Source: a virus
Length of the DNA stretch: 64,000 nucleotides
Strand: one strand, 5' to 3'
IMG/VR virus record: IMGVR_UViG_3300049489_001336
Location: 64,001-128,000 of that record
This document shows, in pieces, positions 2,666 to 58,122 of this stretch. The notes beneath the pieces were generated by a model. The model searched no databases, had not been told where the DNA came from, and worked only from the letters and a program-made list of their open reading frames with translations. Each line of letters begins with the position of its first letter. Positions within the stretch are counted from its first letter, which is position 1. Made by a program: the position numbers and the translations under genes.

Positions 2666-3397
2666 TCAGGTTTCCGTGCCCGTAAGGGCCTGCAACGCTT
2701 CTTCGAGCGCTATGAAACGTTCTTTCATGAGCACAGCCCAGCTACTTACAACGAGCCGCACGGTGGCCTTATCAAGGCCCGTAGACTCGGTAAGGACGTT
2801 GAGCACGTCCATGGCGTACCTTTTGTTGTACTCAGGAACGTACATGCCATGGAAGCGCGTCGCAATTTCCTGGATTTTGGTCACAGGTATTTTGCTGCGC
2901 TTTCGCAGCGCACGGTCAATCACTTTGTCTGTGCCGTCTACAGGTTGCGCGTCTCCCAAGACGTACTCTCGCCATAGGTGTAGAACGGTCCCCGCGTACT
3001 TGGATCTTGGGGTAGGCGCCGTGTGCCCCGCTTCCCATGCCGTGTATTGCGTGGGGTGTACACCTATGCGTTTCGCCAACGTACCTCGTTTGAGGCCCAT
3101 CGCTGTTCGCAATCGAAGAAACTCGGCAGGGCTCAAAGGCCATTCAGGCATATCCCTTATGTCGGTGAGCTCTAACTGCGTCGGTTGCGCAGAAGCTTCT
3201 TCAGGGACTTCAGCCTTCTCTACATATTTTTTCCACAAAATACCTAGTTTTCGGTGGTACTTTTCACTGGGCTTATTATTGCCTTCCAACCAGTGCGTAA
3301 CACCGCGCCCAGAAATGCCCACTCTACGCGCCAATTCGGCGCGGGTAAATCCAGCGGCATTGATGAGTTGTTGGACACTCTCAGAATTCCATTCCAC
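2666..3397 (-). CDS. transcriptional regulator with two XRE-type HTH domains
   Basis: Two Cro/CI-like repeats: FTRAELARRVGISGRGVTHWLEGNNKP and LKRGTLAKRIGVHPTQYTAWEAGHTAP. Confidence 0.85.
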   Translation of the reverse strand: MEWNSESVQQLINAAGFTRAELARRVGISGRGVTHWLEGNNKPSEKYHRKLGILWKKYVEKAEVPEEASAQPTQLELTDIRDMPEWPLSPAEFLRLRTAMGLKRGTLAKRIGVHPTQYTAWEAGHTAPTPRSKYAGTVLHLWREYVLGDAQPVDGTDKVIDRALRKRSKIPVTKIQEIATRFHGMYVPEYNKRYAMDVLNVLTESTGLDKATVRLVVSSWAVLMKERFIALEEALQALTGTET

Positions 3398-4275: not shown

Positions 4276-5772
4276 CTACTCGTTTTGAGTAGATGACAGG
4301 GCCGCAGTGCCTACGCCTAAGCCTGTCCCAAGACCCGCAGCACCCAACAATGCTTTATCTTGGTGCATACGCCCTGTAACACTTTCCTGTAACTTCCTAC
4401 TTATCAAAGGATTATTAAATGTTCCTGGTGTAGGATTAGATTCTATCAAACGAAAAGTGCCGTCAGGAAGTTCCGCGACATCAAATGCTTGATGAAGCGG
4501 GGCGTTATCGTAGTGCGATGTTAAAGGCTTATTCACTTTGCTAACAAAGTCTTCTAAAGCTTGGCGTCTATCCCCCGTAACGGGCATATGCGCAAAACCG
4601 CCTTCGCCTATTCCAAGGCTCGAAGACATCCTGTTCCACGCATCACGTATTTTGCCTTCAGGCAAACGGCGATGTGTCGATGCAAAGGGGACGCCTTGAA
4701 CCGTATGTACACGATACTCATTTTTGATGGGTATCTTTTGTTGAAGAATAAACCTGTTCGGGTTCTTCGCAATATCCTGCCAACGAGAATCCTTTAAGTC
4801 CGTTTTATTACTGACGAATGATGCGACATCGCCAAGGGACTCATCAACGGGTTTTATGAGCCACCCTTCCGGTAAATTTTTCGCTAAATGATTTTGAAGA
4901 GCATTCACATCTCCGTTAAATGCTTTCAAAACGTCCTGCATCTTTTCAGTCTCGGGAATTACGGCAGTGCCATCGTCTAAGTGTTCACGCACCTGTTTGA
5001 ACACGTCACCGAACGTGGCTTTATCCGCCATTGCTCCCGTTAAGCCTGAGTTCGCCGCATTTAGATCCACTTTACCTTGCACGGGGATCTGCGAAAAAGG
5101 AGATCCGTGGTGTAATACGGTGCTGTCTCTACGTAAGACTTCACGGTTTTTAGCAGCGGCAGCGACATCATCTGAAATGTCGTCAGCGCCGTATAAAACG
5201 CGACGTACAGCTCTCCCCAACGCCGAACCCGTAGGTCGATGCGTGGCTACTTCAAACGGGAGATCCTTCGCTTTTTCTTGGAGCTTCTGTAACGCAGGAG
5301 AGTCACTCGGTTTGAATCGACGTAAATATTTATACGCGGGATACATCGCGGCAGCGCCTAACCCTAAGCCTGTCAAAGTATCCTGCGTATCCCAATCATT
5401 TGCGAGCTTTACGCCTAACACATGGCATGCTGCTTTTTTACCTTGGGTATAGGGAACAGACTCTCCCACTGTATCAATAAACGTGGTAGAGGCTGCAGCA
5501 GGGCTCGGGGGACGGCTGAGAGTTTGCGGCCCTACGTTTAGAGACGACGAGGGCGGCGCTCCAGCGCCTAGCTGTTTGGTTACTGGCTGAGCAGCCAGGC
5601 GTGGTGTATTTTGCGAAACGCCGTATGATGCACCAGGTTTGCGCCGTAGATACTTACCTAGGCCGTAAGCGCCGAGACCCAGCGCCCCTACGCCAAGAAC
5701 AGACCCCCATCCCAGTCCTTGCTCTTTTTGGGATTGCTGCGGGTATTGTTGATTTTGATATGGGTTATTCAT
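4276..5772 (-). CDS. ATP-grasp (RimK-like) enzyme with Gly-rich hydrophobic segments and an internal copy of the shared G-x3-A-x3-LG motif
   Basis: ATP-grasp motifs WLIKP, FILQQKI..NEYRV, AFDV and LIESNPTPG; hydrophobic GxxxG helices near the N-terminus, middle and C-terminus; internal YTQGKKAACHVLGVKLA. Confidence 0.75.
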   Translation of the reverse strand: MNNPYQNQQYPQQSQKEQGLGWGSVLGVGALGLGAYGLGKYLRRKPGASYGVSQNTPRLAAQPVTKQLGAGAPPSSSLNVGPQTLSRPPSPAAASTTFIDTVGESVPYTQGKKAACHVLGVKLANDWDTQDTLTGLGLGAAAMYPAYKYLRRFKPSDSPALQKLQEKAKDLPFEVATHRPTGSALGRAVRRVLYGADDISDDVAAAAKNREVLRRDSTVLHHGSPFSQIPVQGKVDLNAANSGLTGAMADKATFGDVFKQVREHLDDGTAVIPETEKMQDVLKAFNGDVNALQNHLAKNLPEGWLIKPVDESLGDVASFVSNKTDLKDSRWQDIAKNPNRFILQQKIPIKNEYRVHTVQGVPFASTHRRLPEGKIRDAWNRMSSSLGIGEGGFAHMPVTGDRRQALEDFVSKVNKPLTSHYDNAPLHQAFDVAELPDGTFRLIESNPTPGTFNNPLISRKLQESVTGRMHQDKALLGAAGLGTGLGVGTAALSSTQNE

Positions 5773-53614: not shown

Positions 53615-54292
53615 TTAATCCTGTTTTTTCTTAGGATTAACTCGTTTTTCTTTTTTGTCTTCGCTCTCAAGAAAATCCATCGTCCTCTTGATGCTGACAA
53701 ACACAAGCTCACGCATAGACTGCGGATACCCAGCCTTGCCCTTGTGCTTCTCCAGATACGTAGAGATGCGCTTATGCAGGTCCAGAGGGATAGGCAAGCC
53801 CATCGTCTTAAACTTCATAGTGCGTTGCTTCTCGGTGAGACGGTACGTGGAAAAGAACTCCAACACGTTAAAAGACACGCTTGGAGCTTCGCCTGGCGCC
53901 TGTTCGGGCTCAGGCACAATCACAACTTCAACAGATTCAACGGGAGCTTCAAGCATAAGAGGCTCGGGCTCAACCACAACAAGTTCTAGGGTTTCAAAAC
54001 TTGGTTCTTGCACCGTTGCAGGTACAGAGCTACTCTCTACGCGGGGTAGTGTATCTTCTACGAAAGATATTTCGGTAGGAGGCGCTTCTTCAATCGCCCA
54101 GGTCCCTGACTCTTCTAGCGAAGGCTCCTCTACTACAGGAGCCGGCGGAGGAGTTTTGTTTTTGGCCTTGGCTTTTTTCTTTGGCTTTGCAGCCACGACA
54201 GGCGCTTCGACCGACGCAGCTTGTGCCTTTGGCGCTTGCCCTCGGAGTTGCTGCTCAGCCTTTAGATACCGTTCAATCTGGGACAGGAACAT
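53615..54292 (-). CDS. protein with long disordered N-terminus and C-terminal ribbon-helix-helix-like domain
   Basis: About 150 Pro/Glu/Ser-rich residues, then FKTMGLPIP (strand), LDLHKRISTYLEKH (helix), MRELVFVSIKRTMD (helix). Confidence 0.55.
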   Translation of the reverse strand: MFLSQIERYLKAEQQLRGQAPKAQAASVEAPVVAAKPKKKAKAKNKTPPPAPVVEEPSLEESGTWAIEEAPPTEISFVEDTLPRVESSSVPATVQEPSFETLELVVVEPEPLMLEAPVESVEVVIVPEPEQAPGEAPSVSFNVLEFFSTYRLTEKQRTMKFKTMGLPIPLDLHKRISTYLEKHKGKAGYPQSMRELVFVSIKRTMDFLESEDKKEKRVNPKKKQD

Positions 54293-54887
54293 ACTACCTA
54301 CTGGTCGTTAAGACATTTGTTCAGTGCCGCCTTGGGAAAACTTTTTGGCGTTTTCTAAATGACTTAAGCCCTATTATCTGGGGTTGACTCGTTGTGTGTA
54401 TCAAGGACAACACTACGACTGTCCTTACTCAAAGTGTAGCACATAACTTTGGCTAAATAAAAAAGCCTCCCATTAGCCAACATGAATAATTACTTTGATT
54501 AATCAAAGACTTTGATCTTTGACGCATCTAGGTACCTATACAGGCTAGCTAATGTGGGTAGTAGGGCGGGGAGGCACGCCCAGCCGACGGCACAGCTGGA
54601 GGGGGAGACTCTGCGTTCGTCGGTACCCGGCCGAGGTGCTGGCGGCACCTCAAAACTGGCTAAATCTTGGACCGACCCCCAAAGGGGCCGGCAGCGGTGT
54701 TACCACCGCCAAACATATATTTTACAGTCCGAGTCAACTCAGCTTGTAAACTTGTTAAGGATACATCTAGCGGTAACAAACAACGACGGCGTGGAAGAGA
54801 ACGTCGGCGGTTTCTAGACATCTACTTACTTATACCACATCTAAGTACATTTCTGTAAATTTGAATACTGGCGACTGAAGTAGCCAT

Positions 54888-55124
54888 GCAATGCTTATTG
54901 CAGTAGCCGCAGACAGAGTAGCAGCAAGAGGCCTTGCACAGAGCAACCAAGGTTGCTGCAAGAGAACTTGCCCGGTGCAAGAACCCTTGCATAGAGCAAC
55001 CAAGGTTGCTGCAAGAGAACTTGCCCGGTGCAAGAACCCTTGCATGGCAATTTGAGTAGCCGCAAGAGAAATTGCGCAACGGTGCTTGCCCTGATGCAAG
55101 ACCTCTTGCTGCAATTTTTGTTGA
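54888..55124. repeat. cluster of 13 GCAA-N6-TTGC palindromes
   Basis: Perfect at 54888, 54924, 54943, 54958, 54977, 54996, 55011, 55030, 55062, 55076, 55096; one mismatch at 55047 and 55111. Confidence 0.93.
54932..55045. repeat. 53-bp tandem repeat, about 2.1 copies, each holding three palindromes
   Basis: Units start at 54932, 54985 and 55038; one mismatch between the two full copies. Confidence 0.92.
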
Positions 55125-55833
55125 CCGCAAACAGCAAAAAACCCCAAAAACGTTCCTCGATTCGCCTGTGGTTGTACAATGAACACAGGAGGTTGTGTGT
55201 GTTCTTTGACTTTTCTTTGCTTTACCACTTGCTTAAGAAACGAGTAACTGCTCTAATGGGAGTGTGTTTACTGACGACTTGCAACGCCCCCCTATTAAGT
55301 TTTTAGAAAGGCATAAGCAAGCCAAAGTACGGTGCGGCAAGGTTGGCACGGTCTCTTGCATTTGCCGGTTTTGTTATTCTTTTTTTTTATTTCCTTACTT
55401 TTCCTTACATGTCGTACTTTTCCTATTATATTTATGTTACATTTATGAAAACTATAATAATTATAATAAGATAAGATAAGAACATGCGCGCACGAACCTG
55501 TTACATACGCTCGACAACACCCCCTGATACGTGCCAACTTTCACACAACATATACCCTGACGCGCGCCCGAGCAGCGCCCACGCGCTGGTGTGGCAAAAA
55601 GTAACATATGCGCGAGTTATTAACTTTGATACTCGCGCGTCACGAGAACCTCGTGAGGAGCACCAAGGGGGTACCCCCTGTGTGGAATCTGGCCAAGACG
55701 ACAGGGGTATCGAAACAGTTTCGAAACATTCAAAATAGAAGTCAATGTTTATAACCAATGAATTAAACTCAGCTTCACCTAGAAGTCACAAAAAAAAAAA
55801 ATCCGATATCCGACATGTAGGTAAAAAAAGAAA

Positions 55834-58122
55834 ATGAAAAAAATCCATAACAATCATGGCTTTCATGCAAACGCATGCCAACCGCATAGCACTATACTTC
55901 GCCTTAGCGGTGACCAACTACTTTGGTGTTTGTCACCAATCTGGCCACGCAATCGAACTGAGGCGCTAAGTCAACAAACCATCCGACAGGCCCCCACCTT
56001 ACTCCGACGTAACCGCAATCTCGTAGATGTCGGGGTATGGAAGATGGTGGACGTTGATGTGTGCCTACATGATGAAATTGGTTGGTTCATCCTCCATTGG
56101 CCCCGTGTTTTGGACACTTTTTTGAAAAGCGGAATTACTATCGACCGCGTAACCCGCTGCATACCGAGCCTCAAGACCCTGCAGACAGCCTGCAGGAACG
56201 ACCCTGCAGCGCGCTACGCGGCCTGGCGAAGCCTCCAAAGCACTTTCGACGCCCAGATGCCGCCAGGCGCCCTTTTGCGGGCTCCTATGAGCCTCACAAG
56301 CGTTTTGTCCGAGTTTTCCACAGAAAAATACGATACAGCTGGAAATCCCCAGGGGTACCTAGATGAATTTTCAGTAGTGAAATGTGGACAGTTGTCCGCT
56401 ACAGCGCACGAAGGCAATGTTTTAGACCTCGAAACACGCCTAAACCGACTGTCAGTTTTTCAACTTGTAAATTTGATGAAGATCAACCCTGTACTGCTTG
56501 ATTTGGGTCATCCCCTCATCAAGTTCTTGTACATGGCGCTCATGCGGCTACACACCACGCCAGAGCACCACGGGTGGGCCCACTGGGGTATCTTATGGAC
56601 CAAAAAAGGTCTGGTGTTCAACCCAGCCATCGCAGCAAAGCACGTGGAAGATGACCCAGCCGTGGCAGTACAACTTGGTTTGCGTACGTTCACAGATGAG
56701 CGTGCGCATGACCTCATTGCGCGCACGACAGACCCCAGCACGTTCTCGCGTAGAGACCTTGCGACGTTCCCTCCTATCGACAGCTTGATTACGAACACAC
56801 CTGCGTCGAGAGAGCACATTGCTAAGTCTATTGAGCCCCTGAAAAGCCTGTACACAAACACCGAATTAGCTGTGTATCAATCGTGCCACAAGCGAGAGTG
56901 TTTGTATTTCCCTATCGAAAGTGAAAAATCAGGGATTATTCAATATTTCAAACAACTAATACTTGTCTCCGCTGAACTCACAAAACCTGACCCTAAACTC
57001 CCTCGGGCCTTGCGGCGCTGCTTTCCCCAGTTCGCACCCAAGACTAAAAAATACATCCCAAAACACCGAGGTGTGGAGCATTCCAAACTCGATTTGGAAG
57101 ACAAAGAACGCATGAGGCCTGTCGCCCTCTGTCAGTTCAACGCTTTTGATCTCTCTTATTGGGACCCCGACCGTTCCGAAACCCTAGAAGAAGGTCTTCC
57201 TTTCCAACCTATGACTATGGAGTTCGCACAATGGGCAGGCTACCAGTACATGTCTTTTCCCGTCGAACTCGCAGAAAAGCTTCCTGAACTCAAAGAGCCT
57301 GTTCTGCTCAAAGACACGGTAATCAGCGCTAATTTAGGTTGGCAGGAATACCCTACGTCTGTAGGAACGGGCGTCGAGCACATTGTTTTGCGCATCAATG
57401 ATGATGTTCTGACAGTTAAAAGCCCTCTCAATACCGTAGAAATTAACTACGGTAAACAAGAGCGGCGCCCCGATCGTTCTCCCAATACGTTCAAGCCCAA
57501 AGTAGGGATTGGGTACTTTATTCATCCTACCTTATTTGTACCAAATGGGCCGGCACACCTTCTACTGGACGCCATCAAGGACAACCGGCCAGGTATCAGT
57601 ATTGCTACAAAGAATCTCATAGAGGCTTTTCAAGTTCTTTGTCGCTGGATTTATAGCCCAGAACTATGCACAGGCATGATCTCGGGAGAACTCGAAGCCG
57701 CACTAAGCCCTGAGAGTCCAGTTATCCTAGACACCCCCAGTGCCCGGCTAAAGTTTTTGCAAGAAAGAGCCACCCGTTCTCGTTATCATGTGCCTCCCCA
57801 TGAAAGTGAGCTCGGCGCCAAAGGTCAACGCTCCAAACAAATGGTCGACTACGACCGGTTTTTGTATTGGTACGTCGCCAAATACGAGCTGGCTGTTCTG
57901 TGGGAAACCAAAAAATGGGCTTTCTGCAAAGAAGACCAGGCCCAGTACATCTGCAAACGCTGGATGCGTTGGCGCCGCGAACTCGCAAGCATGCCGCACC
58001 TGGTGGATCCTTATCCTGGGATTTCTCGCAGGGACGTGAAGGGCTTGATTAGTTACAACGACTGGAACAAGCTCCTTACTACCGCCAATAAGATGTTTGG
58101 CCGCTCCCCGATGGAGCTCTGA
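55834..58122 (+). CDS. large hypothetical protein (762 aa)
   Basis: Long open frame divergent from the RHH gene; no motif recognised; start uncertain. Confidence 0.75.
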   Translation: MKKIHNNHGFHANACQPHSTILRLSGDQLLWCLSPIWPRNRTEALSQQTIRQAPTLLRRNRNLVDVGVWKMVDVDVCLHDEIGWFILHWPRVLDTFLKSGITIDRVTRCIPSLKTLQTACRNDPAARYAAWRSLQSTFDAQMPPGALLRAPMSLTSVLSEFSTEKYDTAGNPQGYLDEFSVVKCGQLSATAHEGNVLDLETRLNRLSVFQLVNLMKINPVLLDLGHPLIKFLYMALMRLHTTPEHHGWAHWGILWTKKGLVFNPAIAAKHVEDDPAVAVQLGLRTFTDERAHDLIARTTDPSTFSRRDLATFPPIDSLITNTPASREHIAKSIEPLKSLYTNTELAVYQSCHKRECLYFPIESEKSGIIQYFKQLILVSAELTKPDPKLPRALRRCFPQFAPKTKKYIPKHRGVEHSKLDLEDKERMRPVALCQFNAFDLSYWDPDRSETLEEGLPFQPMTMEFAQWAGYQYMSFPVELAEKLPELKEPVLLKDTVISANLGWQEYPTSVGTGVEHIVLRINDDVLTVKSPLNTVEINYGKQERRPDRSPNTFKPKVGIGYFIHPTLFVPNGPAHLLLDAIKDNRPGISIATKNLIEAFQVLCRWIYSPELCTGMISGELEAALSPESPVILDTPSARLKFLQERATRSRYHVPPHESELGAKGQRSKQMVDYDRFLYWYVAKYELAVLWETKKWAFCKEDQAQYICKRWMRWRRELASMPHLVDPYPGISRRDVKGLISYNDWNKLLTTANKMFGRSPMEL

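Follow-up and report, generated by a model that had tools for sequence, protein, structure and literature searches.

Thirteen clustered palindromes in a large freshwater phage as a candidate operator array of a ribbon-helix-helix-like regulator family

Introduction

In the virus contig IMGVR_UViG_3300049489_001336 (IMG/VR; 189,879 bp, CheckV completeness 100%), a gap of 1,541 bp (54293-55833) between a minus-strand open reading frame (ORF) of 225 aa and a plus-strand ORF of 762 aa contains an array of 13 short palindromes, GCAA-N6-TTGC. Unless the genome or a relative is named, positions refer to the window, which is the whole stretch of 64,000 nucleotides analysed here (bases 64001-128000 of the contig). 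The locus raises the question of which protein reads these palindromes and whether they serve transcription, replication or partition. An initial annotation had linked the array to the adjoining 225-aa gene, whose product P0001 has a C-terminus resembling ribbon-helix-helix (RHH) domains, and had proposed a partition or origin module with an implied plasmid-like phase. The evidence presented below tips modestly towards the palindromes being an amplified operator array of an RHH-like autoregulator, with P0001 as the candidate binder.

The palindrome array is unique in the genome and has the design of protein-binding DNA

Perfect GCAA-N6-TTGC motifs number 13 in the window compared to 1.9 +/- 1.5 expected, a count reached in none of 100 dinucleotide-preserving shuffles. 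The genome as a whole has 19 of them, 11 inside 222 bp of the array and eight in the remaining 189.6 kb. Pattern and one-mismatch scans bore out the 11 perfect and two near-perfect copies initially annotated within 54888-55124, the latter standing in the same register as the perfect ones (Table 1). The array is real and, statistically, an extreme case. Unique within the genome, it is placed upstream of both divergent promoter-like elements, with -10-like elements on both of its sides.

The commonest site form is TGCAAG-N4-CTTGCA, the central bases being variable. Sites follow each other with a start-to-start spacing of 14-36 bp, most frequently 15 or 19 bp, and the GCAA and TTGC tetramers alternate nearly unbroken, their centres being separated by 10 bp, then by 5 or 9 bp. 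A tandemly duplicated 53-bp unit, suggested earlier as a partial source of the amplification and recovered with Tandem Repeats Finder (TRF; Table 1), explains part of the site number; the units were 94% identical in a repeat search, and self-blast gave 98% identity over 61 nt. Conserved outer tetramers around a variable 6-bp core, the equivalence of the two strands and a unit length, 53 bp, that is not divisible by 3 make up a design typical of protein-binding DNA and not of coding sequence or covarying RNA stems. The possibility that the array is itself coding sequence was rejected, given this unit length and the overlapping ORFs of 54-132 aa on both strands.

Motif, position and gene order are conserved among relatives

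The locus was compared with the related loci L001, L002, L003, L005, L011, L012-L015 and L018/L019 and with four contigs read from gene calls alone. All relatives with gene calls share the same order: a homologue of P0002, the 762-aa product, a divergent gap of 0.6-1.4 kb, one or two genes of ~160 aa, a P0001 homologue and usually a dihydrofolate reductase gene. A homologue of the ~160-aa gene was not detected in this phage by tblastn of the relatives' genes against its genome. The layout of the gap is shared too: TATATAAGG (GGTATAAGT here) faces the 160-aa/RHH operon and is followed downstream by a GC-rich block, and an AT-rich tract precedes the P0002 homologue. Searches of a collection of deposited phages with the locus DNA, P0001 and P0002 retrieved no relative, and pattern searches of viral contigs were likewise empty.

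An exact-pattern search of L001, L002, L003, L005 and L011 revealed no array. With up to one mismatch allowed, GCAAG-N4-CTTGC occurred 12 times in 53.4 kb of non-redundant relatives' loci, compared to 2.5 +/- 1.8 times in first-order Markov simulations, and the same half-sites separated by spacers of 0-3 or 5-8 bp gave only 1-4 matches in this DNA. The gap of L018 contains six sites (three of them perfect) and one N3 variant within 190 bp, located 85-270 bp upstream of TATATAAGG; the simulations gave at most four in any 210 bp. Further gap sites were found at 589 and 641 in L014, at ~299 in L012 and, in degenerate form, at 5286 and 5315 in L001. In L018, L014, L005/L012 and L001, the gap sites lie 60-290 bp upstream of the conserved -10-like promoter facing the regulator operon.

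Moreover, in three lineages (L005/L012/L013, L014/L015 and L018) site pairs are located between the preceding stop codon and the start of the P0001 homologue (Table 1). Since the L018 regulator is merely 33% identical to the C-terminal domain of P0001, motif and position are conserved across considerable divergence. The P0001 family is kept in all site-bearing lineages examined, and site number varies from 1-7 in the relatives to 13 here. The initially drawn link between the array and the adjoining RHH-like gene is supported by the palindromes upstream of its homologue in three lineages and at the equivalent gap position in four. At 1157-1166 of L003, in the equivalent gap, these half-sites are joined directly, with no spacer between them (GCAAGCTTGC); on this contig, the regulator gene is cut off.

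P0001 belongs to an unannotated family with an RHH-like C-terminal domain

From N- to C-terminus, P0001 consists of the peptide MFLSQIERYLK, a run of basic residues, a disordered linker rich in P, E and V, and a strand-helix-helix domain at ~155-215. A word-based search with P0001 alone returned only P0001 itself. The family emerged when tblastn of the relatives' neighbouring genes against the genome matched the P0001 C-terminus, and a subsequent profile search gave at least 32 proteins. Its members share the N-terminal M-L/F-L-x-Q-I, the basic stretch, a variable Pro/Glu/Val-rich linker and a conserved C-terminal block, KMxFKTMGLPVP - LxLHxRMxKFL - xNKDKPGAPQS - LRDLGLMCLGxAMDxL, which shows the strand-helix-helix pattern of RHH proteins.

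Domains of the RHH (MetJ/Arc/CopG) superfamily comprise a strand and two helices in ~45 residues, with a turn of the G-x-S/T/N type ahead of helix 2, and pair as obligate dimers through an intertwined antiparallel beta-sheet. P0001 has the conserved segment KFKTMGLPIP, predicted helices at 170-182 and 193-218 and the turn G(Y/A)PQS. In its single-sequence model, which reached a predicted local distance difference test score (pLDDT) of 48, the two helices follow an extended segment, and residues 23-172 are mostly below 50. Structure neighbours in the ESM Atlas were RHH_1, ParD, NikR and CopG clusters at a TM score of ~0.5; the top feature neighbours were CB_ParB_C clusters at 0.88 with 131 shared features, which is below the reliability line of the tool and serves as a lead only. 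P0001 and 26 family members had no Pfam match even at E values up to 10, PF01402 matched nothing in the genome, and searches with P0001 against PHROG and, by sequence and by profile, against PDB sequences gave no match and no RHH entry. We call the C-terminal domain RHH-like, which stops short of an established RHH.

The array lies between divergent promoter-like elements in a structured control region

The -10-like element of the putative leftward promoter P_L belongs to the motif class GG[TC]A[TC]AAG, of which the genome has 23 copies, most of them on the minus strand and upstream of genes. In relatives, the corresponding position is taken by TATATAAGG, on the border of the GC-rich block (L001 ~5153, L005 ~1550, L014 ~741, L018 3463-3478). 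The region between P_L and the P0001 start folds with z = -2.65 on the minus strand compared to z = -0.91 on the plus strand. Just downstream of P_L, at ~54540-54720 (minus strand), lies a conserved GC-rich structured element, in which alignment with five relatives revealed TTTAGCC as an invariant island and compensatory changes in a hairpin, GGGYR...YRCCC. Neither the gap nor the leader element matched Rfam. The GC-rich RNA element may serve as leader of the 160-aa/RHH operon or be an independent non-coding RNA. The gap, earlier described as a gene-free region of 1.5 kb, does lack convincing protein genes; it is nevertheless occupied by the conserved -10-like element, the structured leader RNA and a second palindrome cluster.

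This second, operator-like cluster at 54493-54522, ~200 bp upstream of the P0001 start, consists of four CTTTGA/TCAAAG boxes, namely those of the perfect 16-bp palindrome CTTTGATTAATCAAAG and, after it, two further CTTTGA boxes. CTTTGA/TCAAAG occurs seven times in the gap, i.e. 4.5/kb compared to 1.3/kb elsewhere (3.5-fold). In L018, TCAAAGCTTTGA is present at 2958-2969.

On the other side of the array, the promoter-like GGCATAAGC is followed by a hairpin containing GCAAG...CTTGC and then by a T9 run (55337-55392). Its fold of -14.5 kcal/mol (z = 0.18) is no better than that of shuffles, and a ~70-nt transcript with an intrinsic terminator at 55310-55392 (plus strand) is a weak possibility. 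The AT-rich tract, initially placed at about 55370-55480, was confirmed at 22-25% GC and contains a sigma70-like match at 55404-55432. In L001, L002, L003, L005, L011, L014 and L018, the corresponding tracts have 0-20% GC and lie ~300-360 nt upstream of the P0002 homologue. This distance is fixed whether the array is present or not, which makes the tract resemble a promoter region; it probably serves the 762-aa gene as such, and a role as unwinding element is possible.

Table 1. Features of the locus, of related loci and of the remaining genome. Positions are those of the window unless a relative or the genome is named.
Feature	Position	Strand	Basis or remark
Array of 13 dyad-symmetric 14-bp sites, GCAA-N6-TTGC	54888..55124	none	proposed operator array
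Perfect array sites (starts)	54888, 54924, 54943, 54958, 54977, 54996, 55011, 55030, 55062, 55076, 55096		pattern search
One-mismatch array sites	55047, 55111		same register as perfect copies
53-bp tandem duplication x2.3, three sites per unit	54924..55045	none	TRF, 95% matches
P0001, 225 aa, candidate array-binding regulator	53615..54292	-	translation, family profile
P0002, 762 aa, divergent conserved partner gene, fold without known match	55834..58122	+	lone plus-strand gene among minus-strand genes
Putative leftward promoter P_L, -10-like GGTATAAGT	54828..54836	-	motif; towards leader and P0001
Long leader or structured RNA region between P_L and P0001 start	54293..54827	-	fold, alignment
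Promoter-like GGCATAAGC	55310..55318	+	motif only
AT-rich tract, 22-25% GC, several TATAAT-like boxes	~55373..55492	none	GC profile
Site pairs directly upstream of P0001 homologue	L005 616/649; L012 1318/1351; L014 1641/1673; L018 4366/4388
Equivalents of the GC-rich element	L001 4900-5160; L003 880-1100; L005 1290-1560; L014 745-1010; L018 3480-3720
Double-HTH_3 protein, 243 aa, two tandem HTH_3 (Cro/cI-type) domains	2666-3397	-	only HTH_3 match of the genome
ParB-type protein, ParB_N + HTH_ParB + KorB	genome 11400-12395 (L017:11400-12395)	-	domain matches

A model of autoregulation through the array

Conserved half-sites with variable cores, strand equivalence, the promoter-upstream position, the second pair at the regulator gene and a copy number that varies between lineages all point to an operator array, and the site pairs that immediately precede the RHH-like gene in three lineages argue for autoregulation by its product. 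We infer that P0001 binds the array, that it does so as an RHH dimer and that transcriptional control is the outcome. The array would be the docking place of a dimeric protein, most likely P0001, that recognises a specific DNA sequence. In each 14-bp site, the two GCAA tetramer boxes would be spaced by 10 bp and face the same side of the helix, and the close spacing of neighbouring sites would let dimers coat ~240 bp cooperatively. Transcription from P_L would cover the structured leader followed by the regulator gene, the rightward elements would lead towards the 762-aa gene, and coating would set the level or timing of the regulator's own operon and probably of the divergent gene too. From the 1-7 sites seen in relatives, the number would have risen through tandem duplication of the three-site unit. 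As the binder of the array, P0001 is the best candidate, with a likelihood that we put at somewhat over one half.

Several observations weigh against this model. The RHH fold of P0001 has no match among Pfam families or PDB sequences and its single-sequence model is of low confidence, and the promoters are inferred from motifs. In this phage there is no GCAA-N6-TTGC at the proximal promoter of P0001 itself, where the CTTTGA cluster is found instead. The 762-aa family, with its weakly helix-turn-helix (HTH)-like conserved C-terminus, is as syntenic with the sites as the P0001 family, so that co-occurrence alone cannot separate P0001 from P0002. Finally, L001 and L011 share the putative recognition strand of L005, yet their gap sites are degenerate or nearly absent. 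In favour of the model, L002, in which this strand differs (ESVSKKMGVNVP instead of KMSFKTMGLPVP), has no such site, which is a single-lineage hint of covariation.

Other candidate binders of the array

That the palindromes form an operator or regulatory array for a different protein appears rather unlikely, and the first protein to be considered in this respect is P0002, since the gap that bears the sites has a homologue of this protein at its flank in every case. Exhaustive searching with HMMER yielded 38 homologues with 25-30% identity, mostly 650-780 aa in length, with the invariant residues G252, L260, R638, D674 and W713. The most conserved part of the family is a Trp/Arg-rich C-terminal helical domain (R638, Y673, D674, W679, E685, W713, R714). 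The AlphaFold model of P0002 suggested in the initial annotation, built from an alignment, was confident (pLDDT 78.3) and had no convincing structural neighbour: Foldseek found no match in PDB or BFVD, and the protein has no Pfam or PHROG family. Residues 661-737 resembled Myb/winged-helix-type DNA-binding domains with VIA-align Z values of 3-4.4, which are below the tool's own noise level. The idea that the palindromes are telomere sites of a protelomerase was dropped, P0002 having no fold match to solved structures, recombinase-type folds included.

The second candidate is suggested by the 4-N6-4 format of the sites, which is that of operators bound by Cro/cI-type HTH proteins; the operators of phage 434 read ACAA-N6-TTGT. 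One protein of this phage has two HTH_3 domains (Table 1) and could read the dyad site as a monomer. A third candidate is the ParB-type protein with ParB_N, HTH_ParB and KorB domains, as ParB/KorB proteins bind palindromes. Its gene sits in the replication module next to a fusion of uracil-DNA glycosylase, exonuclease and PolA and a primase. However, distances of 50-110 kb separate the HTH_3 and ParB-like genes from the array, neither gene has a site nearby, and the site pairs in front of the RHH-like gene in three lineages fit better with autoregulation by the product of that gene.

The locus as a possible replication origin

The initial annotation had also considered an origin. Iteron-like palindromes and an AT-rich unwinding element 250 bp away could be served by P0002 as a novel initiator, or a promoter together with an AT-rich element could prime replication from an R-loop, as known for oriF of T4 and the primary origin of T7. 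An origin of either kind we consider quite doubtful. An initiator role is compatible with P0002 having no known fold, the relatives keep the AT-rich tract at a fixed place in the gap, the iterons of the lambda origin are likewise dyad-symmetric and beside an AT-rich region, and the cumulative GC skew flattens shortly past the locus. However, promoter-like elements lie in the ~250 bp between array and AT-rich tract, and the tract is kept in L002, L003 and L011, which have few or no palindromes, so that the two do not form one unit.

The GC-skew analysis proposed earlier revealed no inflection at the array: the cumulative skew falls steadily through the site, at 119 kb of the genome, to a broad minimum at 128-140 kb, and the main switch between divergent strands follows near 150 kb. 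No DnaA box was found in 54293-55833, and the repeats do not abut the AT-rich element. The genes for polymerase, primase and SNF2 helicase are at 2-17 kb of the genome, and those for DNA polymerase, primase, helicase and terminase are all >80 kb from the array. The origin proposal is left without support by the missing DnaA box, the course of the skew through the site and the distance of the replication genes.

Possible partition, positioning or structure-based functions

It is similarly improbable that the P0001 family represents a new class of RHH-type adaptor in freshwater phages of large size that seem to be lytic, in which the invariant N-terminal peptide on its long disordered tether recruits a partner to the DNA platform. 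The partner could be the host RNA polymerase, a host ATPase of the ParA/MinD type or a phage ParB-like CTPase. If this were true, the array would be a positioning or compartment-organising element or a titration timer rather than a simple operator, and the size of the platform would be tuned from 1 to 13 sites.

A centromere-like partition or positioning site, at which P0001 would act as a ParG/omega-type adaptor with a host or unrecognised NTPase, or which a phage ParB-like CTPase would use, is very unlikely. In its favour, the architecture of P0001 is that of type Ib centromere-binding proteins, and its nearest language-model neighbours are CB_ParB_C clusters (PMC3074162; PMC3130281), although that score is below the tool's reliability line. 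Furthermore, the array is dense and, with ~240 bp, resembles parH, parC and sopC, and a ParB-family protein is encoded. However, the ParA profiles PF13614 and PF01656 had no match in the complete genome, whereas they matched in 14 of 14 control genomes. Its six frames contain no deviant Walker A motif KGGxxK[ST], and neither tubulin (PF00091, with valid controls) nor a tyrosine integrase was found in it. The ParM profile PF06406 matched none of the control genomes, so its search is without weight.

ParA-type ATPases and tubulin are lacking from the genome, as are an integrase and any other marker of lysogeny or of a plasmid. The earlier remark that the window shows no NTPase gene holds genome-wide for ParA-type and tubulin-type proteins, and the proposed partition module and plasmid-like phase find no support. 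The repeat cluster lies beside the RHH-like gene, whose product is its candidate binder; the number of sites, 1-13 among relatives, and their promoter-upstream placement, including directly before the regulator gene, fit operators. With respect to ParB, neither GCAA-N6-TTGC nor a recurring long palindrome lies near its gene, and a genome-wide palindrome census detected no recurring parS-like site. Membership in the type Ib systems fails because the complete genome has no ParA; that P0001 may bind DNA like ParG stands as an analogy.

Least probable, and only barely credible, is that the array acts as a nucleic-acid structure, either, if transcribed, a long imperfect RNA hairpin (a decoy resembling double-stranded RNA, or an RNase III substrate) or a cruciform extruded from supercoiled DNA: the 251-nt region does have strong predicted folds, both for the minus strand (-134 kcal/mol, z = -11.6) and for the plus strand (-111 kcal/mol, z = -8.2), but strong folding is automatic for any array of like palindromes, the array is upstream of both promoter-like elements and so probably untranscribed, the few dispersed sites of relatives cannot form such a hairpin, and half-site sequence is conserved rather than covarying.

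Comparison with known systems

RHH dimers such as omega of pSM19035 and Arc and Mnt of phage P22 bind short repeats, direct or inverted, upstream of promoters. Of these, Arc and Mnt are phage proteins that act on divergent promoters through dyad-symmetric operators. These proteins lack the disordered tail of ~150 residues present in P0001. Moreover, omega, an RHH repressor (PMC9499535), reads 7-10 copies of a 7-bp heptad, and Arc and Mnt use a single operator each, whereas 13 sites are found here.

Two plasmid proteins share more of the architecture of P0001. ParG of TP228 (type Ib) has a flexible N-terminal tail and a C-terminal RHH-type domain, coats an array of tetramer boxes cooperatively and autoregulates its operon (PMC3130281). 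A small tailed protein, a C-terminal domain of RHH type (RHH-like here) and arrayed tetramer boxes are thus common to ParG with parH and the OF operator and to the present locus. However, ParG works with the adjacent ParA-type ATPase ParF, for which this complete genome has no counterpart, the parH boxes are ACTC with AT-rich 4-bp spacers instead of 14-bp dyads, and there is no sequence similarity to P0001. ParB of pCXC100 (Pfam CB_ParB_C) combines a disordered N-terminal half with a C-terminal RHH dimer, has no detectable sequence motif, and binds the many contiguous short repeats of its centromere successively and cooperatively (PMC3074162). Its Pfam family heads the Atlas feature neighbours of the P0001 C-terminus, which is a lead only. 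Here, in contrast, the repeats are inverted, ParA is lacking and the profile search of PDB sequences gave no RHH entry.

The operators of the phage 434 repressor and Cro have a format identical to that of the present sites, 14 bp with outer tetramers (ACAA...TTGT compared to GCAA...TTGC) around a variable 6-bp core, which in 434-type operators can tune affinity. In phage 434, two sets of three operators overlap promoters and are bound by an HTH dimer, whereas here 13 sites lie upstream of promoters, the nearby candidate is RHH-like and the only HTH_3 protein is encoded 50 kb away. Tandem 43-bp units with one palindromic site each make sopC of the F plasmid resemble the 53-bp units, but its binder SopB is a ParB-family HTH protein partnered with the ParA protein SopA, and there is no such partner here. 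The lambda origin has four dyad-symmetric iterons beside an AT-rich region, in kind as here. It lies inside the initiator gene and directly abuts the AT-rich region, a geometry not found in this locus.

Small dimeric regulators on short dyad sites are of a classical kind, and the palindromes are best explained as the amplified operator array of a phage regulator family, probably of RHH type, that had gone unannotated; the gain lies in annotation and comparison rather than concept. The analysis suggests a first testable function for two unannotated families that stand side by side in large uncultured freshwater phages, one of ~200 aa and at least 32 members, the other of ~740 aa with 38 detected. 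It defines a shared control region with operator motif, promoter element, structured leader and AT-rich tract, provides an example of operator-array expansion through tandem duplication, and removes the tempting inference of a plasmid-like phase for a 190-kb phage.

Further features on the P0002 side of the gap

The ~740-aa family (window 55834-58122; homologues P0004-P0040) is represented by a lone gene divergent from the RHH operon in every relative examined. P0002 here, and its homologues in most relatives, are followed by a tandem array of small minus-strand genes. The presumed P0002 5' untranslated region (55493-55833) is rich in GC dyads, namely GGGGGTACCCCC at 55666-55679, CGAAACAGTTTCG and an 8-bp stem GCGCGAGT...ACTCGCGC, and contrasts with the AT-rich tract upstream. 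In L018, tandem 21-bp direct repeats AAACTGACAAAGCTGCTCTGC (~3 copies) and further CTGACAAA boxes occupy 3040-3135 between the AT-rich tract and the palindrome array, and may constitute a second class of binding sites on the P0002 side of the gap.

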